The notes beneath the pieces were generated by a model. That model was not told the origin of the DNA. It did no database searches and saw only the letters and a list, made by a program, of their open reading frames with translations. Position numbers and translations under genes: made by a program. A DNA stretch of 63,989 nucleotides, filler included, from Stramenopiles sp. TOSAG23-6 (lineage: Eukaryota), in NCBI GenBank assembly GCA_900128565.1. It is 5 parts of 5 records of this genome, joined end to end, with 100 filler letters (N's around TTAATTAATTAA, not from the genome) between each part and the next. Parts side by side here need not be neighbours in the genome. Positions count along the whole stretch, not along the records: positions 25,772 to 38,532 come from LT636190.1; 4 more parts are not named here. One strand, 5' to 3'. Of this stretch, positions 12,787 to 46,591 are shown piece by piece (the first letter of the stretch is position 1; every line of letters begins with the position of its first letter).

Positions 12787-12886
12787 NNNNNNNNNNNNNN
12801 NNNNNNNNNNNNNNNNNNNNNNNNNNNNNNTTAATTAATTAANNNNNNNNNNNNNNNNNNNNNNNNNNNNNNNNNNNNNNNNNNNN
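12787..12886. other. Artificial scaffold linker
   Basis: N44-TTAATTAATTAA-N44, with stop codons in all six frames. Confidence 0.95.
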
Positions 12887-24213: not shown

Positions 24214-25671
24214 TGTAGTGGAGGTCAGCAGATTTGTGACAAACGCGTGACGTGTGATCAGATTTTCTGAGCGGTTCTCGGCGTTCTCAACGCCGATTAA
24301 CGCCTATACCTTATATAATCATAATAAAACTTGTTTAAAATTCAAAGTAAAGTTCTTATTCCGGTTTAATCCCGGTAATTACTACAATAATATTATTAGT
24401 GAACTAGTATAGCATGTCTGATCAACATGCATGATATAGGAACTATTAGGAGGCTGCGCAGCGGTGTAGCCAAAGCGGCGAAACCCGAGGACGCTCGGAA
24501 AGGTGAGCAAAAAAGATGCTCATTAAACGACCCCGAAAATGAGGTCAGCGATGGAAAAGACTTACGACCCTCAAAATTGGGCGGTAAGCAGGAAATAATA
24601 ACGGGACCCGTGAAAAGTTATGCGGGACTCAAGGAAATGTGTTATAATGACTCTAGCAAGGACGAAGTGGTCCAAAAGTTTAGCCTAGACTCAGATGGAA
24701 GGAGTGACTCGGAGAACTCCGAGAATGCGAGTGTTGAGGATGAATCGATAAGTTATGGTTCAGACTCTGGTGAGGATGAATCGATAAGTTATGGTTCAGA
24801 CTCTGGTGAAGATGCGGTAGTAAAATCCTCAATGGGATTGCGAAGACATTCGTTACATGTAGATAACGGTTTCCAAAGAAGATTTAAACTGGAGGGCGTC
24901 ATAAATGGAAATGAGAACTCCGAAGATGAGAACGCGGAAGATTTGGCGGAAGAAACTCAACCCCTAGACTCATCAAGTGACTATGGGGCAGCGAGAATGA
25001 TAAAGTCCTCGATGGGACTGCGACGACACTCGTTACATGGAAGTAATGGTGTTCAGAAAAGATTTACACTGGAATATTGCGAGGATAACCGTTCATTTGT
25101 ACGAATAATGAGCGGTGGTACTATGGGGCAGGGTATGCTCTTTATGGTGCAGCTGTTGTATTGGACTCGGTGTAGATGTGGAACAGTTATGGGGCAGCAC
25201 CTGTGAGGGCAACAACCAGTGGGTTATCCACTAAGTGTTTTAGCGCCGCGAGTGGGCGCTATATAAATACATTTCATTGCGAAATTCTATTCAAAACTTT
25301 CGAGGATGAAAGTGCAACGGGGGATTTAGCGCCGCAGGTGGGCGCTATACAAATACATTCTATCATGAGATTCTATTGCGAGCTTTCGAGGATGAAAGTG
25401 CAAAGGGGGATTAGACAATGCGGTGGAACCTCCTTCAACAATGTACAACACATATGCGGTTTGTTTAAGAAAATATTTCGAAGGGTTTGAAACTTTCGTT
25501 AGGTACAAAATTTCGTATGAAAAAATGGTTTTCTCGGAAAATATACTTGACTTAAGTTTTATTATTTCTTTTATTTCATAATATAACTATACAATGGGTA
25601 AGTGAATTATGAGGGGCAGTGTAGTGGAGGTCAGCAGATTTGTGACAAACGCGTGACGTGTGATCAGATTT
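24214..25671 (+). mobile_element. Small non-autonomous LTR-like element: left LTR 24214-24386 (TGTAGT...ACTACA); right LTR from 25620, truncated by the scaffold end
   Basis: 55-bp identical direct repeat at 24211-24265 and 25617-25671; TG...CA ends with a 6-bp terminal inverted repeat; purine-rich GAGGGGCAG just before the right copy. No RT or integrase seen. Confidence 0.55.
24427..25206 (+). CDS. Acidic, internally repetitive ORF inside the LTR-like element
   Basis: 259-aa ORF with duplicated EDESISYGSDSG and KSSMGLRRHSLH; GC-richer than its neighbours. Confidence 0.35.
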   Translation: MHDIGTIRRLRSGVAKAAKPEDARKGEQKRCSLNDPENEVSDGKDLRPSKLGGKQEIITGPVKSYAGLKEMCYNDSSKDEVVQKFSLDSDGRSDSENSENASVEDESISYGSDSGEDESISYGSDSGEDAVVKSSMGLRRHSLHVDNGFQRRFKLEGVINGNENSEDENAEDLAEETQPLDSSSDYGAARMIKSSMGLRRHSLHGSNGVQKRFTLEYCEDNRSFVRIMSGGTMGQGMLFMVQLLYWTRCRCGTVMGQHL

Positions 25672-25771
25672 NNNNNNNNNNNNNNNNNNNNNNNNNNNNN
25701 NNNNNNNNNNNNNNNTTAATTAATTAANNNNNNNNNNNNNNNNNNNNNNNNNNNNNNNNNNNNNNNNNNNN
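25672..25771. other. Artificial scaffold linker
   Basis: N44-TTAATTAATTAA-N44. Confidence 0.95.
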
Positions 25772-25865
25772 GAAAAATATTTCAAAAAAAAAAAACTAAA
25801 ATTTGTTAGGTACAAAATTTCGTACGAAAAAAATAAATTTGAAATTGAAAAAAAATAAAACATAC

Positions 25866-27833
25866 ATGACATCTAAAGTATCTTCAAGGATATCGAAAGT
25901 TTCATCGAAATTTTCACCAAATTTTAAGGCAGATGTTCGAAGCACCTTTAGGAGCATTGACGGCGAAGAAACTCCAGCCATTACAGCTGCCTCTTCACGA
26001 TTCAATATTGTAAAAATATATGTTTTTTTTGGTTTTGGTGTAAAAACAATTGTTAGTTACTAACATTTTGTCCAAAAAAAAAAAAAATTCGAAATTTGAA
26101 ATAAAAAAATCTTTTTTGTGTTTTGTGTAGGAAAAAAAATTTCAGAAGAAAACAAAATGATAAAAACGTACAAGAGCCTCTGTCGCACCTCCAGCACAAC
26201 TGATATTACCGGACCTCATTCCACCTGCTGCACCAGCTAACCCTTTCAACCATTGATTTAATCTATTTACTAAAACAACACAATTTTGACACTCTGCCTT
26301 TGTGACATTTTTTTTTGTTACATCGTCTCGTCGCAGCAATCGAAGATATCGAGCAGCAGCGTACATATATTGTGAAAAAATATTTTTTTTTTTTGAAATT
26401 TTTTTGTTTTTTTTGTTTTTTTGTTTTTTTGTTAGGTACAAAAAATTTTTTACAAAAAAAAAAAAATAAATTTGAAATTGGAAAAAAATAAAATACCAAT
26501 GAAGCTCTCTATAAGACGGAAACCTAAAAATTTGAGGAAGTTTTGTTCTATCTTCTAAATCTGAAATTGCTAATTGTTTGGGGAGTGCAAAAGCATGAAT
26601 ATAGTTACCTCCAAATACTAAAGAATCGGCTGGTGTAAATGTAGTTTGAAGAAATATTTTTTTTTGATTTGTTTTGGTTAGGTACAAAATTTCGTATGAA
26701 AAAAAAATTTTTTTGATTTGTTTTGGTTAGGTACAAAATTTCGTATGAAAAAAAAAATTGAAAAAAAAAATTGAAAAAAAAATCATGAAAACGTACATAC
26801 TGCATGAATCCAACCCGAAGGTAGAAATAATGTATTACCAACAGAGACATTTACTCGAAAACAATCATCACATAAATCTGCAAAAAATATCTCAGATTGT
26901 TTTTCATTTTGAACCCATTCTTCATACTTTTTGAGATTACTTTTTGTTGGTGGAATCATCAAAAATATTTTCTTTCCTCGAATGATACTGTGTTTGTACA
27001 ACAATATTTCAAAATTTTATTTTTTTTGTTAGCCTTATTTCCAAAAAAAAAACTTAAATTTGTTAGGTACGAAATTTCGTACAAAAAAAAATGAAATTGA
27101 AAAAAACGTACTGATACCACACACTAGAGCCTCCAAAGTCAATATGAAAATCAGTATAACTACCTGCAACTGACATTAAACAATATTTTTGTACTCTGGG
27201 AAAGTCACCTGAATGTATACGAGATTTTGGCCACGATGTGTACAAAAAACTAATATCACGAACGACACTTGGAGGTTCAATCAGTTGGCCCAGGGGAGAA
27301 TTTGATACTTCTAGAGATATAACATTAAGAATTCGATCACGTTTTTTTGAAGGGCAAAAGTCTCCATAATAAGAAGCCCAATCACCCAAAGTCCATCCTG
27401 TCAACTGTCTTTGACTTGCCACTTCAATGACCTCTACAGAGACAGCTCTACCCACTGCCTTTTCTACATCCTTCACAGAAAAAGGTTTATTTGGAACTCG
27501 AAGACCCAGTCCTTGTTTGCGTTTTACAATGAAAGGTTCAGCAAATGCATTTGTTGAAGAAATCCATTGTTTTGTGAGAGTGGATCCGTCATGAAGCTGA
27601 CGAACTGAATGTTTTGAAAAAGAACTTTCATTTAACAATATTTTACGAAATTTTTCAGAGTCAAAAATGGGAATACCACCATCAAGGTCTGTATAATTCA
27701 TTTTACCTTTGCTTTTAAGCCTTGCACTTCGTACAGGCCGATGGGTGTCAATAGTGGGTAACACACTAGACACAGATGTCGGTGGAGTATCTTGTGGGGG
27801 TGGCTTCGATTTCATCCATTCAGGCATAGACAT
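25866..27833 (-). CDS. JmjC histone demethylase, KDM2/KDM7/JHD1-like, 3' truncated; introns 26988-27111 (GT-AG), 26639-26796 (GT-AT), 26365-26496 (GT-AT), 26003-26171 (GT-TG) and one running from 25865 to the scaffold edge
   Basis: LNVISLEVS, PRVQKYCLMSVAGSYTDFHIDFGGSSVWY|HIIRGKKIF, LPSGWIHAV|FTPADSLVFGGNYIH and FRFPSYRELH|WYAA are all restored on intron removal. Confidence 0.9.
26365..26496 (-). other. GT-AT intron that fixes the splice register
   Basis: No AG anywhere in the intron; GT...AT removal gives the conserved HWYAA. Confidence 0.85.
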
Positions 27834-28085
27834 TATAACACTACTAATAATATTAACTTTATGACTTCTCAAAAATTATTTTTCTAGTACGTACCCTAGC
27901 CTACGTATTTTACCACGACTACAAACAAACTTTTTTCGCAAAATTGACTCATGACTCATGATGAGGCTAACCCTAACCCTAGTCTAGTCTAGCCGGAGGA
28001 TTTCAAGATTCAATTTTCAAAAGGCCTTTTCGCGTTTCCGATTAAATTTTTCTCTTACCTTTTTCGTTCTCATGTTCAACTAGTA

Positions 28086-30535
28086 ATGCGACGCTTTCAA
28101 GTTATAATAGTACTGCTTTCAGTTGCAACTATTAGCACAATAAATGCATTGAATGAAACAGCTTCGCCTATTTTGACTTCAAGAGAAGAAAAAAAACACT
28201 GGGAAGCTATCGCTGACAACTTATTTTTGGAAAGTCTACCTTCGGATTCTTTACATGAAGAGTTGCAGCGTGCAGCAACTACGTCATCTTTTGCTCTTCG
28301 AATCTTTGTCGATCGGATTTTATCCCAACGGCCTTTGTTGAAAGTGTCAGATCTTGCACATAATTTGCAGACAGCAACCACCGGCTGTGCTGGTCCATCA
28401 AACGAAGAAATAAAGACACATTCCCGATATTTGTGGGAAAGTGGTGATTTGAGTGAATTGAATATGGAAATTTTATATACACAAGCCAGAGAGTGGCCAT
28501 TTTGCGCAGCGCTACAAAATGATATTGCGGCGTTTGAACTTCGTTCTCAAAATTTCAAAGAAGCAGCCAAACGTTTATTACTTGCACTTCGGCTCTTACC
28601 GGATGGAACAAAAGGTAAAACTTACATTAAAAATATGTATCTTCTAATAGATAACCTTGAAGTCACTGTGAAGCAAAACCCAGCTCTTTGTAACAAATTG
28701 GTTGGCGATGGTATATATATCTTTAAAGCTTTCTCACATTTTTTTTTGAGCCGTCGTGAATTTTCAAAAGTTGTGTCAATACAAAAGAGAATTGATTCTT
28801 TTTATTGTACGTTCAAATTCGAATTAGTTTTTCTTCGCGGAAAAATCAATTTGAAATTATATCCAAAGAGCTTTTTTCATAAATTTTGAATATGACATAT
28901 TTTTTCACAATACATGTATAGGTGTTGACGGTCAAAAACGATCTTCGGGGACGTGCGCTAGTCCAAATGGGCAGAGACATTCAACTAATTTTTCTGATTC
29001 AGTTTCAACATTTCGACAAAAAAATATTTTGGATCAAAAATATATAAAAACGAATTTGACAACATTGACTGAAGAAAATAATAAACAACAAAATGATAGT
29101 TGTAAGACACAAGATAAAGAAATATGCAGAAATGTATGGAAAGAAAGTGATATCATGAAACTTCGAAGTCGAAGTCTGAAATGCCCAGTCATTAATTTCT
29201 CTGAAATTAATTCAATGGAATTTTATCACAAATACGTAGAAGGAAAAGATGGTTTTGGAACTCCTGTTGTTCTTCGAGGTGCAATAAACCATTGGCCTCT
29301 ATTTCATCTGGCATTGGATTCGAAAAGAGTAGAAAAAAATGAAAAAAATGAAGAAAAAATTGAAAACAATAAAATAAAAAATAAAAAAAATGAAAAAAAT
29401 GAAAAAAATAAAGAAGAAAGAAAACGTGTCGCTGCAAAACGTCTGTTACATTGGATGAGGGATAATTGGGGTGCGTCGTGGGTCAAAGTTAGTGTTGCTC
29501 CTGGAGGTAAGTTTGATTCTGTAGAACCATGGAATATGTACGTTTTCATCATCAATTTCAAATTTATTTTTGGTACGAAATTTTGTACCTAAACATTTTT
29601 TTTTTTTTTGACATTTATGGTCATTTATGGTTTCATCATTCATTTCAATTTTTCAATTTTTTTTTTTTCATACAAAGTTTTGTACCTGATGATTTTTTTT
29701 TTGTTTTTCATAATACATGTGGCAGAGAAAAGATGGTTCAAAGTGGACGAGTGAAAACAAAAAAGGAAGCTCTGGTGTTCTTGCTCTCCCTGCACAAACA
29801 TGCTCTTCTTATGAAACATTTGTAGAATTACTCATCAAAAGGGAGCATAAAAATAATATATCACATCATCAAAGTCCTATTTCATCTGAAAAAAAACAAG
29901 AAAACAAAAAAAACAAAAAAAACAAAAAAAACAAAAAAAACAAAAATTTAAATTTTCATTCATTTTATGATAAAAATCCAAGTTTTTATTTACAATATTT
30001 TGACACGTTGAGATTAGGAGGAGAAACATGTATCTTTTATTTTTTTTTTTTTGTATGAATTTTTTTTTCATAAAAATTTTGTACCTAACAAAAAACATTT
30101 TGAAATATTTTTCCAAAATACATTTCTCTCGGAATTAGCCCCTGAACTTAAAATTATTCGAAATTTAGGATCTACACCAGGATTGGTGTTAGATGCAACA
30201 AATATTTGGCTTGGTGAAGGGTGTACAGATGGCAAAATACATGTACATTTTAATCATTTATTTTTTTTTCATACAAAATTTTGTACTTGGCCATTTTTGT
30301 AACAACAAAATCAATTTTTTTTTAAGAATTTTTTCACATTACATTTTGATCCACACGAAAACATTTTAGGTCAAGTAGTCGGTCGAAAACTTGCTGTTTT
30401 GTATCACCCAGGAGCATCAGCTCAATTATATCATACAAGAAGTACAGGAGATGAAAAATATATACGTTTTCAAAATTATTTGTATTTTTTTTTTTTTTTT
30501 GGTATGAAATTTTTTACCTAACATTTTTTAAAACC

Positions 30536-30566
<31 letters not shown>

Positions 30567-31081
30567 ATAATTTTTCACAATATATTTATTTCAGGCTTGG
30601 TTAAACTATGAATATCCAAATACTTTTACAAGAATAGATGATTTTAAAAAGCTTCCTGTCACTAGTCATTTCTCCCCAGTTAACATTTTGAACCCTGATT
30701 ATGAAGCTCATCCTGATTATCGTGATGCTACTGCCATTTTGTGTGATATACAACCAGGGGATGCATGTATGTTTTTTTTTTTTTTTTTACAAAAAAATCG
30801 AATTTTTTTTTTTTTTATAATTTTTTTTTGAAATATTTTTCCAAAATACTTTATTCATCCCGTCGTTTTGGTGGCATGAAGTTTTTTCATGGCCACAATC
30901 TATTCAAGTGAACTTAGAAGATGAATCTAAAATCCATAATATACTAAACAAAAGTGAGATTCAAAAGAACGATTGTCCGATAGGTCATATAAAAAACAAT
31001 CCGAATGAAGCTGACGATGCAGGTTACAATTTTGCTGTGAATTTTTGGTATAAACCGTCTAAATCTTCAGTCTCATGTACG

Positions 31082-31119
<38 letters not shown>

Positions 31120-31140
31120 TAATTTTTTACCTAAAAAATT

Positions 31141-31177
<37 letters not shown>

Positions 31178-31319
31178 CGTAATTTTGTACCTAACAAATT
31201 TCAATTTTTTTTTTGATTTTTTTTTTGATTTTTTTCACAATACATGTAATCATGACAATCCACTCGATAATAGACAATGTGAAATATCAGGAACACCATT
31301 ATTTCCTACGATGAGGTAA
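28086..31319 (+). CDS. Signal-peptide, TPR-like plus JmjC (cupin_8-type) 2-oxoglutarate oxygenase; introns 28807-28915, 29538-29718, 30030-30123, 30243-30344, 30462-30585, 30767-30851, 31077-31245
   Basis: The spliced frame restores PVVLRGAINHWP, NIWLG...KIH|FDPHENILGQVVGRK, FSPVN..NPDYEAHP, IQPGDA|LFIPSFWWHEV and AVNFWY. Confidence 0.85.
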
Positions 31320-31639
31320 ATATATATATATAATAAACAAATCATAGTTAAATATATATGTAATAAACAAATAATAGAATTCAAAAAAAATAACAATGAA
31401 ACAAAAATGTTACAACAATGTCATTTAAAAGAATTTTGTATAATCAGTTTTCAAATATTGATTTATTCTTATCATTAATTTTTCACCTAAATTTGCTTTG
31501 TACCAAATTTCATACCAAATTTTGTATGTAACGAAAATAAATATCAAATTCAGAATTTCTTTTTGAAATATTGTTTCATTATTCAAGTATACTACCAACA
31601 ACACAATGATATCTCTACTCTTTCATAATTTATGACTAC

Positions 31640-33695
31640 TCAACTTGTGAATCCTGTTTGCATCGAATATGTATTTTGGAAAAATATTTCAAAAAAAAAA
31701 TCGTTAGGTACAAAATTACGTACGAAAATATTTTCGAATTTGAAAAAAAATAAAACATACATTTAAATTCTCCATTTCCTGGGGGTAAAGTCGCTAATTT
31801 TATATCTCCAATAATAGTTTGATTTGCAATACTTTTAGCCGAATCAGGAAGACCATGTATTTTGGAAAAATATTTCAAAAAAAACCCCTCAAATTTGTTA
31901 GGTACAAAATTTCGTATGAAAAAAAAATTCAATTTCAAATTGAAAAAAAATAAATAAAACATACATCCCATAAAACATCGAGGTAGTGTAACATTTCAGT
32001 AAAACCACGTGGCATTACATTTATTTGAGTAGATGCCATTGTATACAAGGAATGAAGCAGTAAACGAGACCCTAACGCAACCTTAATCGCTGCGTCATTC
32101 AAGTATTTTAAAAAATATTTGAAAAAAAAAAAAAAAAATTGTTAGGTACGAAATTTCGTACGAAAAAAAAAACTTCGAATTTGAAAAAAAATAAAACATA
32201 CAAAGCAACTGTTGAGGAATTTTTCCGGATTCCCATCTCTCGAATTTTTTGTTGCTGAGATAGAATAAGTCTCAACTCGTCATACTGAGCCCGAGCTTTA
32301 CTTAGTTCTTCCTGTGCATCTTTTGTCGTAGTCTCATTTTGCTGCTGTGAATGGCTCGCAAAACTTGTGTTGTTACCGGGAGTATTAGGGTTAGGGTTAC
32401 TTTTTGGCTCAACCGCGACATTCATTTTAATACCAGTCGTGCTTTTCTGTGGTAAAGTTTCAATACTAGTACCATCCTGAGATGCTGCATGATTCATTTG
32501 TGTTGGAGAGTAATTATGTAGTGTCCTTTATGATGAAACAAAATGTCAAAAAAAAAAAATTGTTAGGTACAGATCTTTTTTTGGGAAAAATAATTCGTTC
32601 TTACATTGATAAATAAATTAATAAATTCATGATGGAAATGTACATGGCTGGTTGTTGTGAGGGTGCTTGCGACATCTGTGACATCTGGAGAAACCCTGTT
32701 GGTGACATTGATACACTTGCTGAAGGAGATGAATTTTGTCGTTGCTGCTGCATCTGTGTTTGTTGTGCCATTACAGGTGACATCTGTGTTTGTTGTGCCA
32801 TTACAGGGGACATCATTTTATTCATTAGATCAACTTGAGCACTGTTCATCGGGTTCATCAACCCACCACCACCATTAACTCTATTCATCAATTGAGCAAT
32901 ATTCTGCATTTTGTGTTGCTGTTGCTGCATCTGTTGATAATATGTTCCAGCTGTAGGATTATTTCGCATTGCTTGGCGTTGGAAAATATTTTGGTCTCCA
33001 TTGGAAAGCTGAACGAGGTGATTTTGCGGTGGTAAAGTAGCATTTACAGTGACTGTTGAAGCTGATCTTGTTGGTGTTGGGGTTGGAGATGGACCCCTCC
33101 GAATTCTCTTACGTCTTGTGGTTGGGCGCCGTCCGCTATTGAATCGTCCGTCTTTGTGTGGTACACATTCTGTGCCCGCTGCGATACAAGATTTACATTG
33201 GGTAGCGCCTTCTTCGAATATGCATTTTTGATGACGTTTATGGCAGCGCTCACATGTTCTGGTACTACCTTTTCTCTTCTTTTTTGTACTCATGTTTCCC
33301 TGTTTTCCCGTGGTAATATTATTTACGATGATGTTTCCGCTTTGGTTGCTCGCGCAAGTACTCGCGCAGGCATTTACGCGGGTGCACGTCTTCTTTTCCG
33401 CGCTGTTGTTCGCGCTGCTTTCCTGTAATTTCTGTATTTCGGATTCCGTTACTTTGAGCGAATTCACTAATACGTGTTTTATATCATCGCCGTTGACTAC
33501 GGCACTCACGTTTAGAGCCGGGATAGGATTGCTGGTGGCGACGACAGGGAGAGGAGTAATAGTCGTATTAGGGGAATCTGAATCCACTTTTACATGTACC
33601 ACGGGGATTAAATTATTCCGCGGGGTGTTTGCAGATGCCTCGTTTTCTTTCATAGGACTTATAATATCATTTTCATCATGTACAATAACTTCCAT
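31640..33695 (-). CDS. Zn(II)2Cys6 binuclear-cluster transcription factor-like protein with a Q-rich region; introns 32526-32643, 32101-32201, 31855-31964, 31669-31760
   Basis: CERCHKRHQKCIFEEGATQCKSCIAAGTEC = C-x2-C-x6-C-x8-C-x2-C-x6-C, preceded by basic KKKRK; the frame is continuous after intron removal. Confidence 0.75.
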
Positions 33696-34007
33696 GATTT
33701 CAAGATGTGATTTCAAAATGATCTAGATAGATCAGTAATGCTGTATTAATTGTGCGTCTATCTTGCTTGCTCAAGGAGTCGCTCAAGGAGGAGAAAAAAA
33801 GTAAAGCACCGAAATATCCGATTGCTATTAGGTACAAACTTTTGTACGAAATATTGTGAGTCAGCATAAACCAGTAAAAATATAAGACTTGGTGAGAGAC
33901 ACGAAAACCAAGGAAAACAAACGCAAAACAAACGACGACACAAAAAAATATTTTTTACAGCTTTTTTACACTCTCTTTCTTTTTTTTTACTTATCAGTCC
34001 TTGTACA

Positions 34008-35248
34008 ATGAGATGTTTGAAGCATCTTACAATATTGTTATCATTTTTAGCGTGTCTCTCGACATTTGCAAAGCTATCAAAAGTAGTGACTGATGTGATG
34101 TGTCTAAACAATGTATATAAAACCTGTAATATTCGAGTCGCTGTAATATATGGTCTTGCAAAAGGGCAAAACGAAGATGCATTTGAGCAAGGTTTTCTTG
34201 CGGCAATGAGTGAGGTCTCCACTAGATATTCTTCAACTTGGATTAATCTGTTTAAATACGAAGGGAAGCAAATAGCAGACGTACTTGAAGTATTAACAGG
34301 TTTTGATTTATTACTTGTCAAAAGTAATTGGTACTGGAGTGTAGACACTTTTGTGAGGCAATATCTCAGAGGGGTAATGTGGGATACAATTCCCAAGATA
34401 CTTTTGATTTCAGGAAGTGCTTCCCCACCGCCTGGGTCTGAGATTTTATTTTATAATGTGTTACTCTATGAAACGGAATGGTATAAACCCGAAATAGAAA
34501 GACATCCTAGAATAGTGCATGCATTTGGAATCGATACAAGAAAAATGAAACCCCTACCTGTATGTTTAATTTTTTTCAAATTCTATTTTTTTTTCGTACG
34601 AAATTTTGTACCTAACAAATTTTTTAGATTTTTTTTTGAAATATTTTTCCAAAATACCTGAATTTATGGCCAAACACGGTAATATAAAAAAGTGGGACTA
34701 TTTATCTGCTGGAATGCTTGTAGGGTATAAAAGATGGCACAAACTTGCTCATGAACGTAAAGGTCGACGACTTCTCGTAGGTCGTGCTGATCAGCCTGAA
34801 AGTGAAGCGATTGTAAAAGAGTTAGAAGATGCGGGTATATGTTTTATTTTTGTTTCAATTTCGAATTTATTTTTCGTACCAAATTTTGTACCTAACGAAT
34901 TTTTTTTTTTTTTTCGGTAAAAAAAAAAATATATTTTTCACAATACTTGTTGTAGTTCTTCCAGAAGTTTCGTACGAAAAATTATGCGAGTTGATTAATC
35001 TATCACATCATGTATATGTACCCGCAGCCCTACATGGTGGGGGAGAAAGATTAGTTCTTGAAGCACGTGCAGTTGGGACTGATGTTATTGTCGAGAGTGA
35101 TAACCCAAAGTTGATTGGAATGGCAAACGGACCTATATACTCACATGATTATTATGCTGTACAAATATTAAGAGGTATAAAAATGTCCCTTGGTGTAAAT
35201 ATAAGCCCTATAACAGATACAAATGATAAGAATACCAAAGAGTTATAA
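34008..35248 (+). CDS. GT-B (GT4-like) glycosyltransferase with an N-terminal signal/anchor; introns 34560-34659 (GT-CT) and 34837-34948 (AT-TT)
   Basis: GYKRW..L and YVPAALHGGGERLVLEARAVG motifs; three ORFs fuse in frame (KPLP|EFMAKH; EDAG|VVVLPEV). Confidence 0.7.
34560..34659 (+). other. Type example of the non-AG intron family (GT...CT)
   Basis: GTATGTTT...TTCGTACGAAATTTTGTACCTAAC...TTGAAATATTTTTCCAAAATAC-CT; removal restores the glycosyltransferase frame. Confidence 0.8.
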
Positions 35249-35336
35249 AGATATGTAAATTTTAGCATTCAATATACAAACTCTAACCTGAGTCTATTAA
35301 ACAATGTCTCAACCAAAGGTATATAGAAGTTTGGTC

Positions 35337-35888
35337 TCACCTTCTTGAGAATTTCGACCTTTTCTTCCTTCTTTGTCCGTCACGTTTGACACGATCACCA
35401 AAGAAGTGTTTCTTCTGGAATGCTAACACTGCTTCAGGAATACCATCATTAGATGTACAAGAGTCTATGTCCGAAGACAACTTCTTGGAAGCTACAACAA
35501 GGTTGAAGTTACCCCGGCGAACTTTGAGATCTCCTGCCTCAAATTTCTTTCTTTTTTTCTTTTGCTTCCTACTCAGGTCTTGTTCGCCTTCATCATCTGA
35601 ATCAAAATATATCCGATTCTGATTAGATGTTTCATTGTCTACTATGTTTTGCTTTTCTGATTCTTTCTCTTGTACTTCCTGAACACTTTCCAGGAGACCC
35701 GTCGGGAGGGCATCCGCGTCAGAACTAACTCGGCGACGTTGACGAGTACGCTTCCTTGTGCTACTCCCTGATGCTAGTTTTTGTGACTTAATTTTTTCCA
35801 ACGCTGAACTACGGGAAGAAACATTACTTACCTCTTGTGGAGCTTCATCATCTGAATCACTGCTACTATATATAATAGGTTCGTCCAT
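35337..35888 (-). CDS. Small charged nucleolar-type protein (possibly NOL7/Bud21-like)
   Basis: SDDEAPQEVS motif and basic clusters; the family call is weak. Confidence 0.55.
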   Translation of the reverse strand: MDEPIIYSSSDSDDEAPQEVSNVSSRSSALEKIKSQKLASGSSTRKRTRQRRRVSSDADALPTGLLESVQEVQEKESEKQNIVDNETSNQNRIYFDSDDEGEQDLSRKQKKKRKKFEAGDLKVRRGNFNLVVASKKLSSDIDSCTSNDGIPEAVLAFQKKHFFGDRVKRDGQRRKKRSKFSRR

Positions 35889-36149
35889 TCTATTTTATAA
35901 TATGAAACTAAGCTAGACCTGTGTAGTACCTACTGGCAGCTATACGACTGTGGTACCTTTGATGTTGATCGAACTGACTTCACACAGGAGCATTTTTCCA
36001 TTTTTCGTGTTCGTGTTCCAGGTCAAAATCAAATCAATCACACACGCACTCTTTTTACCAGTAGGAGGGAGGCTTATAAATTATAATATAGTAGTCTAGC
36101 TAGAAAATTTTAGTCTCTTGTAATTAGTTATGCCATTCAGTAAAACACG

Positions 36150-38407
36150 ATGAAGATATTTGGATTGACCGCATCGTTTGTATTGCTAGTTTTTTGTATC
36201 TTAAATCAGTTATTTGCCAATGCGAATCAAAACTTTGATTCTTCAAGGGTTGCAAATGTCTTTATTGTACAGCTTCATGAATATTTGTTGCCCTCCAAGC
36301 TTACTGCTTTAATTGAGACTATTATTGGGTCTCCAATAGATGCAACAAATACCAGCCTACAAAATTTGAATTCAAACGATACTAGTGATGTAGTCAAAGG
36401 ATGGAAGATGGTTGAACGGCACAATAAAGTATTTCGTGAGGAAATCCCAACTGACTTTGCAGTAATTCATTGTAGCGGTAACACAAAAGAAGTTTCTGCT
36501 ATTATCAAAATCATTAAAAACTCAAGTGTTGTACGCAATGTTATACCCGAGCGCCGATACTTTGCGTCTTCAAAAGTTGCCGATATAGGGAAACAATTTA
36601 AACATTCACAGTGTCCAACTAACTCAAGTGAAAGTGAAAGTTTTTCTTCCAACACTCATGATAGTTACACATACTTTAATCCCAATATTCCCAATACAAA
36701 TCAACAAACCAGTAACCAAAATATGAATACGCGAAAGTTGCTGTCAAGTAGCTTAGGAAATTCTCGGTCTTCTGTTGATCCATTACATATTGGTAAAAGT
36801 CCCCCATACGTACCACATCTTTCCTATTATGAAAGACGATCAATGTATGTTTTTACTTTTTTGAATTTTTTATCTAAATTTTTTTCGTACGAAATTTTGT
36901 ACCTAACAAAAAAAAATCAAATTTCAAAAAAAAAAATATATTTTTTCAACAATACATGGTCGAGGAATTTGGAGCTCCTCTGTTGTGGAAGAATAATCTC
37001 ACGGGAAGTGGGGTCAAAGTTGGAGTGTTAGACACTGGAATTCGCGAAAAACATCCACATATTCTTCATCTAAAGGAACGTAGTAACTGGACGTACCAAA
37101 ACTCCGAGGCAGATGGAGTAGGACATGGTACGTTTTGCGCTGGTATGATTTCTAGCTCGTATCCAAAATGTGCTGGTTTTGCACCTAACTCTGAAATTTA
37201 CACATTTAAAGTGTTTACGGACAACCAAGCTTCGTTTTCGTCATGGTTTTTAGACGCTCTCAATTATGTCCTTTTTAAGGAAATTGAATTAGTGAATCTG
37301 AGCATTGGTGGACCAGATTGGCGAGATGCCCCATTTATTGATAAAATACGGGAATTGGGTGGACATGGTATCGTGTTTGTATCTGCTATTGGTAATGATG
37401 GTCCATTATATGGCACTTTAATGAACCCTGCGGATCATATGGAAGTTATTGGGGTCGGTGGAATAACCAATACTGGAGAAATTGCACAATTTTCATCAAG
37501 AGGTGCAACAGTTCATGAATTGCCGTATGGGTTTGGTAGGGTTAAACCAGATATTGTAGTATATGCTGAAGGACTTCTTGGTTCTACTATCTCTGGAGAT
37601 TGTCAAACTCTGAGTGGTACTTCAGTAGCTGCACCTGTAGTTACTGGTGCTCTTGCATTGTTGATGAGTATCCCTCGTTCAAATAAGTCAATTCCAATAA
37701 ATCCAATAAAATTTGATTTATCTCTGGATACATCAAATGATAAAAAAATAAAAAGTGAGAACCCTAACCCTAATAATGACAGAAATAACCCTAACCCTAA
37801 TGACAGAAATAAAGGAATAAAAAACAAACTTCGTTGGAATCCTGGAATAATGAAACAAGCTTTAATACATTCAGCAAAACCGATAAAAGGGATGTATGTT
37901 TTATTTTTTTTTTTTTACAAAAAAAACGATTTTTTTTTTCGTACGAAATTTCGTACCTAACAAATTTAAGTTTTTTTTTTGAAATATTTTTCCAAAATAC
38001 AAAAGTATTTTTGAACAAGGTGCAGGTGTGATGAATCTTCAAGGTGCCGCTGATTTTCTACAAACATATCCTCCAGAAGGCATGTACGTTTTTAACATCG
38101 AATGGTATACTTTTTTTTTTCGTACGAAATTTCGTACCTAACGAATATTTTTTACGAAAAAAAAAAAAAAAAAAAAAAAAAATATTTTTTTTCACAGTAC
38201 ATGGCAACATTATTTCCATCTTCACTTGACTTCACTGATTGTCCCTATATGAGTCCATTTTGTGAACAACCTACGTATTATTCTGCAATGCCAATTGTCG
38301 CAAATGTAACTATATTAAATGGAATGGGCTCTCATGGCTACATTGAAAAACAACCTATTTGGAAAGGGGGTGAAAATGGTGAACATATAAAAGTACAAAG
38401 TTCTTAT
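36150..38407 (+). CDS. MBTPS1: Site-1 protease (SKI-1/MBTPS1 subtilase), 3' truncated; introns 36845-36957, 37894-38002, 38084-38202 and one from 38408 to the scaffold end
   Basis: VGVLDTG, GHGTFCAG, NLSIGGPD, SAIGNDGPLYGTL.NPAD, ELPYGFGRVKPDIV, LSGTSVAAPVV, FEQGAG, DCPYM.PFC.QP.YY and NVTILNGMG; RKLL processing site. Confidence 0.92.
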
Positions 38408-38532
38408 GTATGTTTTATTTTTTTTTTTTTTTACCGAAAAAAAAAAAAATCGATTTTTTTTTCTTTTTTTTTTTTCGTACGAAATTTTGTACCTAACAAA
38501 TTTTTTTTTTTTGGTAAAAAAAATTTTGAAAT

Positions 38533-38632
38533 NNNNNNNNNNNNNNNNNNNNNNNNNNNNNNNNNNNNNNNNNNNNTTAATTAATTAANNNNNNNNNNNN
38601 NNNNNNNNNNNNNNNNNNNNNNNNNNNNNNNN
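38533..38632. other. Artificial scaffold linker
   Basis: N44-TTAATTAATTAA-N44. Confidence 0.95.
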
Positions 38633-38755: not shown

Positions 38756-40764
38756 TAATTCTTGTCTAGTTAACCCCACTTCCTCATTACATTGATCAAA
38801 ATGTATATTTCGTGTCCCTCCTGTTGGCTTCCAAGGATTTCGTGCTATATATGATTTTTGGTTGGGGTTAGGGTTACGTTTATTCTTTTCCAAATGTTCG
38901 AGAATATTCCTATGCCGTACTTCATCTGCAGCTACGCCACCATACATGTATTTTGGAAAAATATTTCAAAAANNNNNNNNNNNNNNNNNNNNNNNNNNNN
39001 NNNNNNNNNNNNNNNNNNNNNNNNNNNNNNNNNNNNNNNNNNNNNNNNNNNNNNNNNNNNNNNNNNNNNNNNNNNNNNNNNNNNNNNNNNNNNNNNNNNN
39101 NNNNNNNNNNNNNNNNNNNNNNNNNNNNNNNNNNNNNNNNNNNNNNNNNNNNNNNNNNNNNNNNNNNNNCAAAAAAAATTTTAGAAAAATTTGTTAGGTA
39201 CAAAATTTCGTACGAAAAAAAAAATATAGACAAAAAAAAAATTGAAAAAAAAATAAAATATACACGTAGGCACGTCCACTAACTTCTTTACCTATTTGAG
39301 ATGTCTTTATGTCCAATAATGTAGGTTTTATTTTACGTAATTTTGATTGAATTGTTTCTTCAAGTATTCTTGCATTATTACTGATTTTATCTATAATCTT
39401 TTTTTTGTTTTTAAATAAAGTTGAATCTATTGTATTACAACGAATACGACGATTTGTACATGATGTTGTTTGCATGAAATGCATACCAGAAATAAATCGC
39501 GGTAAAATTTTGCTTGGTGCTGTTTTAGGCCGTTGTTTGCTTTGTTGTTGTTGTTGTTTTTGTTGTTGTTTTTGTTGTTGTTTTGTTGTAACTGCTAGCT
39601 TTCTACTCCTACTAGCGGTAGTAGACGCCATTAATGAATAATTTGGCAGTTTTTTATGATTGCTTTTAGGGTTTTTAGGGTTTTTAGGGTTTACCATTGA
39701 ATGTCTTTTTTCATTAGGATAATTAGGATTTTTAGGATTTTTAGCATGTATAGGCGTATTATTCTTCTTGATAATGTTTGATTGTGTTTTTGTAGCATTT
39801 TTAGTTACAGAATATGTTTGATCTATTTGGTTTGGCGAATCTTTCTCTCTACTATTCAAAGAAAATTTATGTTGTTGTTGTTGAACATCTTTATTAGATT
39901 TAATTGAGTATATAAAGACTTCTTTTTGTTTGTTTTGTTTGTTTTGTTGATCTATTTGGTTTTGTTTGTTTTGTTGATCTATTTGGTTTTGTTTGTTTTG
40001 TTTGTTTTGTTTTTCACTGTCTATGTATATATAATCAATATTCATCAATGAAGCCAAACTTTTTGTATAATTCACTGTTTTTATATATTCTAATCTCTCA
40101 TTTGTATTTGTTACAATAGTAGTCTGTTTCTCAGTCACTTTGACTATATTAGGGTTAGGGTTTGTATTAGGGTTACTAAAATTTCCATGGCAAATTGAGG
40201 TCCAAATATAAATGTAATGAACTCTGTTATGTGTACTAATTCTAAACCTTCTGAAGCTAAACAAAGAAAAAGAAGCTTTTTTTCGCGGAAAGAAAATTCA
40301 GTTTTACATTGGCTATTTTTTTTTTCACGGAAAGAAAACTCAGTTTTACATTGGCTATTTTTGGAATTTGTGTCACCAACACCAAAAAGACACACTTCTA
40401 AAACATGTATAAATTGTGGAAAATGTAATGTATCAGACTCACTGGTGGATGTATTTCGAAAGAGGCGAAGAAAGTTTCGTTTCTTTCCAGTAAAAGTTAA
40501 TTTTTTTCCAATATTTTTACGTAAAACATCAATCTCCAAAGAAACACGGCGTTGCCTATCCTGGGCTTGTTGTATAAATATTTGTTGTACACTATCTCGC
40601 CTACAAAGAAAACCACGAATATAGGGCTGTAGCTTCTGCATTGAAACGACGTGTCTACTGGGAAAGTTGCGTAACCGCTCTCGAAACTTTTGTTGTTGGC
40701 TAATTTCGAAAAGCTTTTCGTCATGAAGTTCATACCAAGTCTCTAGGGCTGCTTCGTCAGTCAT
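38756..40764 (-). CDS. Left-arm mirror copy of the IQ-motif protein; lacks a segment near 40175 relative to the right arm
   Basis: Reverse complement of 49197-51257 except for the collapsed segment. Confidence 0.5.
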
Positions 40765-41177
40765 AACTTTTAATCTTTTATAAAATGATGAATATATGTT
40801 GCATATTATTTCATTATTTACTCTTACTCACTTGTATACATGGTATGCGTAGAAGTAATCTAGTAGTAGTTGGTACTACAGAAATAGTACTGCTACCGTA
40901 GTGTAGTCGTACTACGTACTACCCGTACTAATGCCAAATCTAAATATAGCAGAGTGAAAAAAAAACAACTGATGATGGTGTTGGATTCGGATTGCTTTGG
41001 CAGGTTTGTTCACAATATAATTTGGGAGACGAGGAGACACCAAAAAAACCAAAAAGAAAGACAAAACGAAAAGACAAAAACTTTGATTTGAAGTAGTATA
41101 GGTTGATACGTAGATTTGAATTCTCTTATAAAACTATTCATTATATTGATTGATCCTGCCTTTAAAAGGTGACTACA

Positions 41178-41807
41178 ATGACACTTTCATTAAGTTGGTT
41201 CTTGACTCTCTTTGTGGCTATTTTATGTGACACAAAACAATGCGCACAAGGCAAAAACATAACTGATAAAATTGCGACAGAGCAACTTATACCAGCTTTT
41301 GAACAGAAGCCAATAATGAAACGACTGAAGTGTACGGCGTGTCGTGCAATTTCTTTTGAAATGTACGAGGCTCTTGTAAATCTTGATAGGAAACGGGGCA
41401 ATAGCAACAAAGTCAAAGAATTCGAAAGGTCTGAAGTTTTGGAATTTATATGTGAAGAGCCACCATCAGTAGATTTCTCGCATAAGTCCCACAAGAAGCG
41501 AAAGGAAACTCAAATTCCTAACGTAGCTGAACAATATGGTTTACAGAAAAGAAATAACAGAGTCACAACTCTTTTTTCAAAGTCAAATGAAATCAGTCGT
41601 ACGCGAGGTGCTTGGATGTGGAATTTTTTTACAAATTTATGTGGCGATTTACTTGGAGATTACGAAGATGATATAAATATGCTATACACAAACGGTCAAG
41701 ATTTTTTAGAAACATTTTTGTGTGTAAAGGAGAACACTTGGTGTGTTGATATTGGTATGGACTTTGACCATTCTTTACAATTGGAAAACGAACTGCGTGA
41801 ATTATAA
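41178..41807 (+). CDS. Canopy/MSAP-like (DUF3456, saposin-like) ER protein, left copy
   Basis: Signal peptide, LKCTACRAI, EVLEFIC, CGDLL..YED, FLC....WC and C-terminal REL. Confidence 0.75.
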   Translation: MTLSLSWFLTLFVAILCDTKQCAQGKNITDKIATEQLIPAFEQKPIMKRLKCTACRAISFEMYEALVNLDRKRGNSNKVKEFERSEVLEFICEEPPSVDFSHKSHKKRKETQIPNVAEQYGLQKRNNRVTTLFSKSNEISRTRGAWMWNFFTNLCGDLLGDYEDDINMLYTNGQDFLETFLCVKENTWCVDIGMDFDHSLQLENELREL

Positions 41808-42362
41808 TTTTTAAAAGTTTGGACAACAACTCTTCATGGGCTTTCTTGGGCTTTCTCATGGGCTTTCATGACCTTTCATGACCTTTCATGGCCTTTCATG
41901 ATCTTTACTATAATATATATAGTGATAAATAGTGACATGGACTTGAAGTATTGAAAAATCACAACATTATTAATACAACTAGTATAATGATACTTGGTGG
42001 TATAGTTTAAGCCAATATTGAATATTGTAAGAAATATAAACACACAAATATGATTGATAGATGTAAGAACTATATACATAAAAAGAATAAAAAGAATGTA
42101 AAAATAAATTAAACATTTGAATAAAAAAACAAAACAAAATGAAATATTATTATTTTGGAAGTCAACGACAATTTATTTTCTCATCGCTTGCTAAGCCCGA
42201 ATAAATTGAATACATTCGAATCTTAGTCGTCAGATTAGTTCAAAGTACATCGTAATACGTTGTGTATACTATACTTGAATAATATGCAATATAATATATT
42301 ATATGTAATATATATATAAGCCATCATTACTATAGTAACACTAAAACATCATAATTGAGCAC

Positions 42363-42770
42363 TTATTCAGCTTCTTCAGCACGAAGACGTCCGTTCGCAT
42401 TGAGAACTGTAATTCGGAGTTCAGCAGCGCGATCAACAATCATCTTACGTTTTCTAGCGGAAACATTGTGGCAAATTTCAGCAGCAAATTTACGGTTCTG
42501 CATGATGAGCATCTCAAGTTCAGCAGTGTTGGAAACACGGAATTTTTTGAGACCACATGGCAAGACGTGACGAGTCTTTTTGTTGTTTCCGTAACCAATA
42601 TTTGCCATTTTGATGGCACCACGGAAGCGACGTCTAACGCGGCAATCAATACCACGAGGACGACGCCACGATTCTTTGACACGCATGAAGCGATTGGATT
42701 GGAAACGCTTGAATGCTTTCGTGCGTTTCTTGACCTTTTTCATGGTTTTGAGAGGAGCTGCGGCGACCAT
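42363..42770 (-). CDS. RPL32: 60S ribosomal protein eL32, left copy
   Basis: [33 protein letters not shown] and [13 protein letters not shown]. Confidence 0.97.
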
Positions 42771-43659
42771 CTTTATTGTAAGGGGAGATATGAATCAAGA
42801 GTATTTTGAGGGTTAGTCTACATGTTCCAAATATTATTATTTGAGTGAAACGAAAAATACACGATATACACGCCACTACTATGCACATATATGTATGTGT
42901 ACATGCATGTAAGTTCGTAGTGTGTAGTAGGAATAAAAATGTGAAAAACACACAAAGAAAAACCGATAAAAGAAGAGAAACCGATAAAAAGAAGAGAAAC
43001 CGATAAAAGTTATAATGAGCTCACTCTCTAGAGTGTCAATGAAAGAAGCATGGAGAAAGTTTGAGTATATCATTACTTCTATACTATCAACTCATCCATT
43101 CTCATAGATTCATTACTTGTACACTTTTGAGAGCGTACTTGTTGTACACATAGTATAATAAATCATTACTGTGTGGGAAACAGTAGAGGAAGAGGTCTCT
43201 CAAGCTCGTCGAGCGGCCATCACCGTACTTGTTGTTACATGAACAAATTTAGGAGAAGTATATCCTAAAGAAGACATGTACAGGTGCGCATTGCCTTGAA
43301 CTATAACAATACATGTATTAAATACCAAAAAATGAGGATTCAAGCATCGTTGGGAGAGATTTTACTTACCTTAATATCAATCTGACTTATGACTTTCGAC
43401 GCGAAACCCACAGACAGGCACAACACAAGCAAAAGTTGCGAAAATTGCGGACTGAAAGTATTTCTGACAAACCTGCTTTAATATTTTGATAGAAAAAAAT
43501 GTAGGGTACCCGGTTCTCTTCAGTTCAGCGCAAAAAATCGTCGACATGTATAGAAAATGATGACTCTTACTCATCGAAAGTTGTTGAACTTTTTCACTTT
43601 ATTCTATAGTTGTTTCTATAGTTTTATATCAGTTATATTGTTGATACGTGAAAGAAGAA

Positions 43660-44181
43660 ATGGTTAGATCAAGAAAAGCTATACGAAGAAAGGGTGGAAC
43701 TCGTGTTAAGCGAAAACAGAAAAGTCGGTTACACCATATTAGCAACTCTTTTGCAAACGAAAAGATTGCAAAGCGATGGAACCATGCCAAAACTCTACGA
43801 CAAAACTATGCTAAACTTGGCCTAGCCTTTGACTCTAATGGTAACTTGGCTGGTTCGAAACAAATATCGGAACATGCAATACATGCTACAAAAGCAGAAA
43901 CAGATATAGTGGAGTTATTTGACCTACCGTTAGGTGGCGTTGATCTTTCAGTTAGCGGTAAACCACGAGCTCATGTAAGCCCTGAGGATAAAATCTATCT
44001 CAACAAGTTGATGAACAAATACGGCGAAGACTACGGTGCCATGGCTAGGGATATTAAACTGAATTTTAAACAACACACTCGTGCGTTTCTCGCAAGACGT
44101 TGTAAGAGACTTTTAACATATCAAAAGGAACATAGTGCAGTGAAAGTATATGGACCTATGAATGAACAAAACGAAAATTGA
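43660..44181 (+). CDS. NOP16: Nucleolar protein 16, left copy
   Basis: W...KTLRQNYAKLGL and KYGEDYGAMARDIKLN..Q.T. Confidence 0.88.
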   Translation: MVRSRKAIRRKGGTRVKRKQKSRLHHISNSFANEKIAKRWNHAKTLRQNYAKLGLAFDSNGNLAGSKQISEHAIHATKAETDIVELFDLPLGGVDLSVSGKPRAHVSPEDKIYLNKLMNKYGEDYGAMARDIKLNFKQHTRAFLARRCKRLLTYQKEHSAVKVYGPMNEQNEN

Positions 44182-44403
44182 ATGAGAAAAATGAAAGAGA
44201 AAAATGAATTCCAGTCGAACGAATAATTTTGTCTAGGCTTTCATTATGTTTTACACTTAAGAATATAGTACACCTAAAATCATTATAGTAGGGATTATAC
44301 AACTAATATATACCACATTTGTTTTTTCAAATTTATGTACAGTTTTATAAAAATTGGTACAAAATGTAGAATTTTTCAGAATTTTTCAGGTTTTATTTTT
44401 CCC

Positions 44404-44936
44404 TCATTTTTTATCTTTCTGCATTTCCGAAATTCCCTCATCAGTCATAGTATGATTATTATGTTTATTAGCGGAACTATTTTTCTTTCGGATACATCGA
44501 ACAATTGGCATTACACAAATTGTTAAAAATAATACAAAAAATGTGATAAGTAGCGCTAAGATATAATCCGGGAAAAAATCTATTGTACAATCTGGATAGT
44601 GTGTTCCCATGGTAACGATGGCTTCTTCTGGAGTTTGTTTTGTTTCAGTTACATTTATTGTGAAAAAAAATTGCAAAATTTTTTTTTTTTGAAATTTGGA
44701 AATTTTTTTGGAATTTTTTTTTTGGACATTATATTTAAAATTCATGATGAAAAACATACCTGCCCTTCGTTAACAAATGGAGCACAGCTTTCCCAAGACA
44801 AAACAGGTTTGTTATCACTATAACCTGTCCATCGAATACAAGGTCTTTTAGATACATCTATAGATGAGCCACTAGTAGGACTATCATTAAATACTTCAAC
44901 AATTGCAAAATTATGATTTGGATAAAATTTATATGC
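44404..44936 (-). CDS. 3' exons of a single-pass membrane protein, left copy
   Basis: Mirror of 45025-45557. Confidence 0.5.
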
Positions 44937-45024
44937 AAATATTGTGAAAAAATATTTTTTTTTTTTTTTTTTTAAAAATTAATTTTTAAAAAAAAAAAAA
45001 AAAAAATATTTTTTCACAATATTT

Positions 45025-45557: not shown

Positions 45558-45779
45558 GGGAAAAATAAAACCTGAAAAATTCTGAAAAATTCTACATTTT
45601 GTACCAATTTTTATAAAACTGTACATAAATTTGAAAAAACAAATGTGGTATATATTAGTTGTATAATCCCTACTATAATGATTTTAGGTGTACTATATTC
45701 TTAAGTGTAAAACATAATGAAAGCCTAGACAAAATTATTCGTTCGACTGGAATTCATTTTTCTCTTTCATTTTTCTCAT

Positions 45780-46301: not shown

Positions 46302-46591
46302 TTCTTCTTTCACGTATCAACAATATAACTGATATAAAACTATAGAAACAACTATAGAATAAAGTGAAAAAGTTCAACAACTTTCGATGAGTAAGAGTCA
46401 TCATTTTCTATACATGTCGACGATTTTTTGCGCTGAACTGAAGAGAACCGGGTACCCTACATTTTTTTCTATCAAAATATTAAAGCAGGTTTGTCAGAAA
46501 TACTTTCAGTCCGCAATTTTCGCAACTTTTGCTTGTGTTGTGCCTGTCTGTGGGTTTCGCGTCGAAAGTCATAAGTCAGATTGATATTAAG

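Follow-up and report, generated by a model that had tools for sequence, protein, structure and literature searches.

The window analysed here, 63,989 nucleotides with filler included, comprises five joined parts of the genome assembly of Stramenopiles sp. TOSAG23-6 (GCA_900128565.1), with positions 25,772 to 38,532 derived from LT636190.1. Five exons of a JmjC protein lie between positions 27833 and 25866 on the minus strand, beginning with an ATG at 27833, and are separated by introns that are copies of a repeated element. Curated copies of this element were spread over the JmjC gene, a site-1-protease gene and at least four other sets of open reading frames (ORFs). By similarity across the JmjC domain, the gene at 27833-25866 is of the KDM2/KDM7 (JHDM1) type, as had been proposed in an earlier note on this DNA, made by a model from the sequence alone, which called it KDM2/7-like.

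Structure and identity of the JmjC gene

Exon 1 (27112-27833; all features of this gene are on the minus strand) ends in TGG TAT CA (phase 2), and residues 40-240 of its product matched residues 64-257 of PHF8 chain 3kv4_A with an E value of 3.8e-38 in a search of the Protein Data Bank (PDB), in which solved KDM7A, KDM2A and PHF2 were also matched. Intron 1 (26988-27111), of 124 nt, extends from GTACGT to AAACACAG and is a copy of the element that carries the box TACCTAAC and ends in ...AAACAC followed by AG, with flanks CA and AG. Exon 2 (26797-26987) starts with T ATC ATT, encodes IIRGKK...GWIHAV and matched PHF8 residues 259-321, KDM7 residues 204-265 and KDM2A residues 226-286 (E 1.2e-17 for KDM7). 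It is followed by intron 2 (26639-26796), an element copy of 158 nt with a doubled core that runs from GTACGT to CTAC plus AT between flanks AT and AT. Exon 3 (26497-26638), encoding TPADSLVFGGNY...YRELH, matched KDM2A residues 288-332 (E 7.6e-13) and PHF8 residues 323-365, and intron 3 (26365-26496) is a degenerate copy of 132 nt that runs from GTATTT to CAATATAT (CAATAT plus AT) between flanks TG and AT. The product of exon 4 (26172-26364), YAAARYLRLL...GGATEAL, is a lineage-specific part of the protein for which no solved homologue was found in the PDB search; it aligned to P0002 (EukProt record g2448.t1), the closest relative among the matches listed. Intron 4 (26003-26171) has 169 nt, from GTACGT to CAATATTG (CAATAT plus TG), with flanks TT and TG, and exon 5 (25866-26002) encodes NREEAAVMAGV...LDVM. 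Another element intron begins at 25865 (AT|GTATGT) and runs into an N gap. The coordinates and letters of the JmjC introns in the earlier note were all correct.

The HxD...H motif, represented by TDFHIDFGG and GWIHAV, was identical to the corresponding PHF8/KDM7 columns, and its residues are presumably the iron ligands. With Pfam, single exons scored 26 bits for Cupin_8 (cut-off 27.4) and 15.1 bits for JHD. No PHD, CXXC or F-box/LRR accessory domain was found in the 461 residues recovered from this gene, which runs into the N gap at 25672-25771.

Splice register at the JmjC junctions

Exons were joined by coordinate with a script and the borders were shifted to compare registers, register 0 being the one drawn in the earlier note, GT...YAY+2, in which the intron starts at the GT of the element and ends two bases past YAY. 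All joins tested were open across 461 codons. At junction 1, register 0 gave SSVWY-H-IIRG as opposed to S for register -2 and R and Q for registers -1 and +1, so that H was obtained from register 0 only. At junction 3, register 0 gave RELH-W-YAAA and a shift of 2 nt upstream gave M. Registers -2 to 0 yielded identical mRNA at intron 2, which has AT on both sides, and the join at intron 4 read TEAL|NREEAAVMAGV. No AG was present in intron 2 or intron 3 beyond the first 6 nt, and use of the next AG 3' of intron 3 (...GCGACGAG|ACG) would fuse CAT TG to A, giving an immediate TGA.

The match of exon 2 to solved homologues began at the next-but-one residue after the match of exon 1, and therefore one residue must bridge junction 1; exactly one residue spans junction 1, and exactly one spans junction 2, in those homologues. 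A library of 1.84 billion proteins, searched with exon 1, contained 1710 relatives at E values no higher than 0.001, and the 150 best of these were taken. P0001, the public model of the JmjC locus itself, was left out, and the remaining 149 were aligned by hmmalign to a profile of the register-0 protein. The junction 1 column in this set contained H in 139 and N in 3 of 142 aligned orthologues, and S, the residue of register -2, in none. The junction 2 column, in which register 0 places F, contained Y (82), F (20), H (16), L (11), K (1) and V (1) among 131 orthologues, and none had the C of further-shifted registers. At junction 3, W was found in 114 and F in 7 of 128 orthologues, with seven other residues once each, and the M of register -2 was not among them. 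Insertions beside junction columns 1, 2 and 3 were noted in 0 of 142, 0 of 131 and 1 of 128 orthologues, and the columns next to the junctions were near-invariant (V 145/145, Y 142/143, G 139/140, V 131/131 and T 130/131).

The alignment with P0002 covered 421 columns, 239 of them identical (57%), and was free of gaps at all four junctions, that of the GT...TG intron 4 included. The junction sequences of P0002 are SSVWYHIVRG, WIHAVYTPQDS, RELHWYAAAHY and TEAVNRVEAAIMAGV, the last reading TEAV|NRVEAAIMAGV where the JmjC gene has TEAL|NREEAAVMAGV.

The GT...YAY+2 register in the JmjC gene is supported by this homology, in agreement with the argument of the earlier note that conserved JmjC residues favour GT...ATAC+2 over an AT-AC register. 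That note had read H rather than S at 26988-27111 and W rather than M at 26365-26496, and it had proposed the alignment of the spliced protein to orthologues that was run here, in which register 0 was favoured at both of these discriminating junctions. Its statements that 26365-26496 lacks AG and that the next downstream AG leads to TGA were both borne out in the sequence, and the GT-TG member that it placed in the same gene at 26003-26171 gave the gap-free join to P0002, though Leu is encoded there in registers 0 and -2 alike.

A repeated element with splicing signals

The core of the element, TTAGGTACRAAATTTCGTAYG, had 43 matches in the window as opposed to 0.01 expected by chance. In the sense of the intron, a typical copy reads NN|GTAYGTTTTATTTTTTTTCAATTTC ... 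CGTACGAAATTTTGTACCTAAC ... T-run ... GAAATATTTTTCCAAAATAC|NN. Thus, the element starts with GTAYGT (GTAYGTTTT), contains a palindromic core CGTACGAAATTTYGTAC that leads into the branch-site-like TACCTAAC, and continues through a T-run to the 3' terminus YCAMAATAC; its terminal inverted repeat is short (GTAT...ATAC, 4-8 nt). Curation was limited to 22 copies with both ends recognisable, of 88 to 209 nt, and left out copies entering N gaps and copies with degenerate cores (25865, 38408, 38752/51258, 1068, 25546 and others).

Among the 22 curated copies, the 5' site had G at +1 in 19, A in two and T in one, T at +2 and A at +3 in all, G at +5 in 20 and T at +6 and +7 in all, and the U1-complementary consensus GTAYGT was present in 19. 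At the 3' end, A was found at -7 in 22 copies, T at -5 in 21, A at -4 in 22, C at -3 in 17 (T in the other 5), A at -2 in 18 and T at -1 in 19, while each position from -16 to -12 was T in 15 to 22 copies. A TACCTRA box was identified in 21 of the 22, the nearest box being 29-155 nt from the 3' end; the distance of 155 nt was measured in the 209-nt copy (153-361), and the remaining 20 copies fell between 29 and 75 nt. In the GT register, the termini were GT-AT in 14 copies and GT-AG, GT-CT, GT-TT, GT-AA, GT-TG, AT-AT, AT-TT and TT-AT in one each. A terminal AG was therefore present in 1 of 22 copies, and no AG at all occurred after nt 6 in 11. The triplet YAY formed the last three bases of the intron in 16 of 22 copies in the GT register and in all 22 when the end was placed two bases upstream. 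A YAY preceded the 5' site in only 5 of the 22 copies, and no curated copy began with AG.

When the element plus two bases was removed, 19 of the 22 copies gave a joined frame that was open for at least 30 codons both before and after the junction. With the 3' border moved by -2, -1, +1 and +2, the frame was open in 3, 1, 3 and 0 copies, respectively; the antisense strand was open in 3 of 22, and the unspliced reading was open only in JmjC intron 3, which can be read through in frame for 44 codons. From these controls of frame and strand, the copies therefore behave as introns of their own strand with a length class of element plus two.

In 15 of 22 copies, the same two bases stood on either side of the element (AT/AT in 13, TT/TT in one and CT/CT in one), and these likely represent a 2-bp target-site duplication, in which case removal of the element and one copy of the flank restores the frame because of the duplication. 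The frequent G past the 3' flank, seen as the first exon base in 15 of 22 copies, would fit a 3-bp duplication as well. The remark in the earlier note that many copies can be drawn as AT-AC introns applies to the 13 with AT on both sides.

Some copies departed from the usual form. The first base was A or T (two copies and one copy, respectively) rather than G among those at 30462-30585 (+), 34837-34948 (+) and 1684-1776 (-). The copy at 34837 has a GT two bases upstream and could be drawn as GT...AC. For this and other copies with unequal flanks, the alternative junction residues were G or V (34837-34948), V or M (50950-51064) and I or N (153-361). The core with its TACCTAAC box was doubled or tripled in tandem within single introns at 26639-26796 (-), 430-608 (+), 29538-29718 (+) and about 1068-1300 (+).

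Splice register in a site-1-protease gene

The site-1-protease (subtilase S8) gene contains an element intron at 37894-38002 (+) that has unequal flanks (AT/AA) and afforded a second test of register. Register 0 gave KG-I-SIFEQG, and K was obtained at the junction from register -2 (computed) and from register -1 (by eye). In an alignment of 119 longer relatives, from which P0271, the public model of this locus, was left out, 115 had a residue in the junction column (V 32, P 22, A 17, I 13, L 10, S 6 and F 4 among them), and in none was this residue K; P0273, the closest relative, had I. This test is weaker than those in the JmjC gene. Two short pieces of the site-1 protease found no match in the PDB. 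An insert of about 45 residues with telomere-like NPNPN, in the site-1-protease exon (37755-37800), is absent from P0273 and spliced out by the public model.

Public gene models and transcript searches

The public models P0001 (25866-27833, -) and P0271 (36144-38407, +) bear the EukProt names GSMAST32.ASY1.ANO1.24.1 and.25.1. In P0001, 18 residues are removed inside exon 1, a splice HAV|SDS is made at an AG in exon 3, intron 3 is read through and the model stops inside intron 4. In P0271, element introns are mis-spliced or read into. Both are of the canonical-only kind and visibly wrong at the element introns; in them, conserved residues are deleted and element introns are either read through or end the model.

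Among transcript-derived proteins of the same organism, no match was found at 106-340 aa, and at 30-245 aa the best identity was 65% among the 120 matches listed, below which very short fragments would fall. Nothing was found in metagenome contigs with a spliced-junction probe or with a search for exon 4. Four seawater metatranscriptome runs contained part of the gene (0.05-0.22 of the sampled words), shares that are no evidence of expression.

Other features of the window

The window is AT-rich, with a GC content of about 0.24-0.44, and gene-dense on both strands, with long ORFs. The ORF products are eukaryotic and include a ULK4-like kinase, teneurin-type EGF proteins, Kri1, the site-1-protease-type subtilase and EF-hand proteins. 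No Rfam family was matched in a scan of the window. Telomere-like (TTAGGG)2 or (CCCTAA)2 repeats occur in 8 places (32385, 37762, 37789, 40149, 50053, 51569, 53058 and 56754), several of them within ORFs, where they code for NPNPN.

The segments 39170-44900 and 45000-49840, which adjoin gaps of 197 N, are inverted copies of one another with 4685 shared 40-mers, and could form a genuine palindrome or have arisen as an artefact of assembly. The N gaps at 12787-12886, 25672-25771, 38533-38632 and 51378-51477 each consist of 44 N, TTAATTAATTAA and 44 N; this linker has stops in all six frames, and element introns are cut by several such gaps. On the far side of the N gap that follows the JmjC exons lies a direct repeat of about 90 bp, at about 25230-25400 (+), which reads …AGCGCCGC.GGTGGGCGCTATA.AAATACATT…GAGGATGAAAGTGCAA.GGGGGATT….

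Proposed origin and removal of the element introns

The copies are probably spliceosomal introns created by a non-autonomous, transposon-like introner with a GT start and a 3' cut two bases past YAY, because they have a U1-type 5' site, a branch-type box, a pyrimidine tract and a sense-only orientation and because conserved proteins are obtained once the element plus two bases is removed. By this account, the element's first base would supply the 5' splice site (GTAYGTTTT) in the compact genome of a marine eukaryote, but the element would supply no AG; the excised intron would be the element with the two bases that follow it, and its terminal dinucleotide would copy the insertion target, mostly AT. 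Excision would occur in RNA via the U2-type spliceosome, with GTAYGT recognised by U1 and the A of TACCTAAC as the putative branch point, and the position of the 3' cut would depend on its distance to the conserved terminal motif and not on which dinucleotide comes last. The 5' GUAU of the intron may pair with the 3' AUAC of the ...CAMAATAC terminus in setting this cut. In spliceosome structures, A at position -2 of the intron contacts the branch adenosine, a contact that could be preserved by the A found at -2 in 18 of 22 copies. A more general claim, which the data make conceivable and which we advance only tentatively, is that a marine protist, perhaps a marine stramenopile, splices most of its introns, with an ordinary U1-type GTAYGT and branch box, by an AG-independent 3' rule in which the cut falls two bases past ...CAAAATAC, whatever the dinucleotide.

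A number of observations weigh against the interpretation of these copies as introner-derived introns of the form GT...YAY+2. The support for this register in the JmjC gene comes from homology, and it is a weakness that the orthologue columns derive from a profile of our own register-0 protein, although mis-register of these columns is unlikely because the columns that flank them are invariant. Intron 1 is plainly a canonical GT-AG intron and demonstrates only that the GT of the element is used there. Intron 3 pins the register only to the range from 0 to +3, within which the mRNA is identical because GTA is present at both junctions, and intron 4, with Leu in registers 0 and -2, does not discriminate. 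For the 13 copies with AT/AT flanks, the GT register would be an extension from the copies with unequal flanks. The 15 identical flanks are only a modest excess over the approximately 10.5 expected from flank compositions, and G is missing at +1 in three copies. Minimum free energy (MFE) folds showed at least three of the four terminal pairs in only 9 of 22 copies, a count made with no control. To our knowledge, first-G/last-T lies outside the combinations of first and last bases (G-G, A-C) known to support the second catalytic step. At the site-1-protease intron, a canonical, in-frame AG lies 3 nt downstream and is used by P0271 (KGIIFEQG). Finally, an AT-AC drawing yields the same mRNA in 13 of 22 copies and satisfies the rule by which first A and last C are compatible.

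The last of these points would be explained if registers were mixed, such that AT/AT copies are U2-type AT-AC introns and only copies with unequal flanks use GT, with AG or some other end. Ends at YAY would then be found in 22 of 22 copies as compared with 16 of 22 in the GT register. We consider this reading unlikely, since the TT/TT and CT/CT copies are incompatible with AT-AC, an end at YAY is rejected by JmjC intron 3 (M in 0 of 128) and by the site-1-protease intron (K in 0 of 115), GTAYGT at the first base of the element is a good U1 target whereas ATGTAY corresponds to no known 5' consensus, and two mechanisms for one element family are less economical. Removal by something other than the spliceosome, either DNA excision between 2-bp repeats in the manner of ciliate internal eliminated sequences or structure-guided RNA excision as in euglenids, would accord with the short terminal inverted repeat GTAT...ATAC next to 2-bp direct repeats and with the terminal pairing that 9 of 22 MFE folds showed; euglenids and Amoebophrya are precedents in which the ends pair and the cuts are offset (PMC11282704, PMC7789003). 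The copies, however, carry a full set of spliceosomal signals, and their orientation is sense-only (19 of 22 open in sense as opposed to 3 of 22 in antisense), which DNA excision does not require. Moreover, 7 of 22 have unequal flanks and offer no repeat for recombination, and the elements remain in the assembled DNA, all of which makes such removal very unlikely.

It is also highly improbable that splicing is canonical only, with cryptic GT...AG pairs or read-through as drawn in P0001 and P0271 and with proteins that have simply diverged. Both public models are drawn in this way, JmjC intron 3 is open when read through and the site-1-protease intron has its nearby AG, but the consequences for the proteins are adverse. 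Thus, P0001 loses F-T-P, of which T is shared by 130 and P by 119 of 131 orthologues, gains 44 low-complexity residues at a place free of insertions in 127 of 128 orthologues, and stops within intron 4 though the downstream exon matches P0002. Similarly, a join at the AG used by P0271 drops one residue that is retained in 115 of 119 aligned relatives. AG is absent from 11 of 22 introns, and reading through them meets a closed frame in 21 of 22. Scarcely credible is the proposal that the elements are not removed at all, being recent mobile insertions that make pseudogenes or else artefacts of assembly. No expression was seen here and the assembly is fragmented with many N linkers, yet the intervening exons are both intact and conserved (in the 421 columns aligned to P0002, identity is 57%), frame is restored in 19 of 22 copies as opposed to 0-3 of 22 for off-length removals, orientation is strictly sense, and several copies per gene occur in at least six genes.

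U12-type AT-AC introns were considered as a further candidate and rejected. Introns of this type have a 5' box (A/G)TATCCTT and a branch box TCCTTAAC located 10-20 nt from the 3' end, whereas the copies have the 5' consensus GTAYGTTTT, neither ATATCCTT nor (A/G)TATCCTT, and a branch-like box at least 29 nt from the 3' end.

Comparison with known systems

Non-canonical introns of the larvacean Fritillaria borealis derived from miniature inverted-repeat transposable elements (MITEs) were reportedly described by Henriet et al. in 2019. Introns of F. borealis are mostly non-canonical and MITE-derived, with 5% GT/AG, 18% AG/AC and 16% AG/AT; YAY forms the last three bases and another YAY often lies just upstream of the 5' site, while AT closes 44% of the introns of F. 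pellucida (PMC13326754). A review adds that F. borealis introns are preceded by exonic TAC (PMC11282704). The introns of the window resemble those of Fritillaria in their miniature-transposon appearance, with terminal inverted repeats and, in the window, only likely target duplications, in mostly non-AG 3' ends, many of them AT, in YAY at the 3' end, in removal being ascribed to the U2-type spliceosome and in an ambiguity of borders that is settled by unambiguous cases. In contrast with F. borealis, which has non-canonical 5' ends and exonic TAC, GTAYGT was present in 19 of 22 copies here, YAY 5' of the site in only 5 of 22, and variability was confined to the last two bases. Given these canonical-type 5' ends, and the MAST in the EukProt names, which would stand for marine stramenopile, the host is probably no larvacean tunicate.

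In introners of the marine protist Amoebophrya, direct repeats measure 3-5 nt and inverted repeats 8-20 nt, and cut positions vary; more than 60% of these introns have non-canonical termini, a clear dinucleotide signature is reported at neither the 5' nor the 3' end, and U1 snRNA was not found there (PMC7789003). Points of likeness are the repeated introns, the inverted repeats at their ends, the direct repeats over exon/intron borders, the prevalence of non-canonical termini (more than 60% in Amoebophrya), probably a marine protist as host and, as proposed for the present family, a splice position set relative to a hairpin rather than by dinucleotides. The points of difference are one dominant family, a canonical-type 5' site, a branch box, a T-tract and a terminal inverted repeat of only 4-8 nt. 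In Micromonas and the stramenopile Aureococcus anophagefferens, introners are non-autonomous, resemble DNA transposons, create introns on insertion, carry part of the splicing signals and restore the frame through target duplication, as the present family would, but the splice sites that they use are canonical (PMC7789003, PMC11282704). Nonconventional introns of euglenids share variable borders, border repeats and, if the ends do pair here, offset pairing of ends (PMC11282704, PMC4770533), but lack the conserved 5' GT, branch and pyrimidine signals (PMC11282704), all three of which are found here. As regards AT-AC introns, most copies can be drawn as AT|GTA...TAC|, but the ATATCCTT box is absent, the branch-like box lies 29-75 nt from the end in 20 of 21 copies, and homology rejects the AC end where it can be tested.

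No paper on such introns in marine stramenopiles was found among the main texts searched. The main text of PMC5778133 contains 'intron' twice, neither time with reference to intron type, and contains neither 'splice' nor 'non-canonical', and 'intron' is absent from the main text of PMC8163842. Surveys of introners begin from annotated introns, and families with unfamiliar sites are checked or discarded (PMC12130899); because of this starting point, a family masked by canonical-only annotation would be invisible to them. The present introns are comparable to these known systems, and what would be new relative to Fritillaria and Amoebophrya is that a canonical-type 5' site is kept together with an AT or other non-AG 3' end.

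Implications

The reason why AG closes almost every spliceosomal intron is still sought, and natural exceptions to the rule are few, namely those of Fritillaria, Amoebophrya and euglenids. If the present interpretation is true, a 5' site, branch box and pyrimidine tract of textbook form, combined with a last dinucleotide derived from the target, isolate the step of 3'-site choice, and the family is a clean case of a transposon turned intron without supplying an acceptor. Ordinary annotation would err on such genes, and both genome protein sets and introner surveys based on annotation would miss the phenomenon. Should the more tentative AG-independent rule also be true, one introner family would have filled the genes of its host without needing AG, and gene sets already published for such genomes would contain systematic errors.

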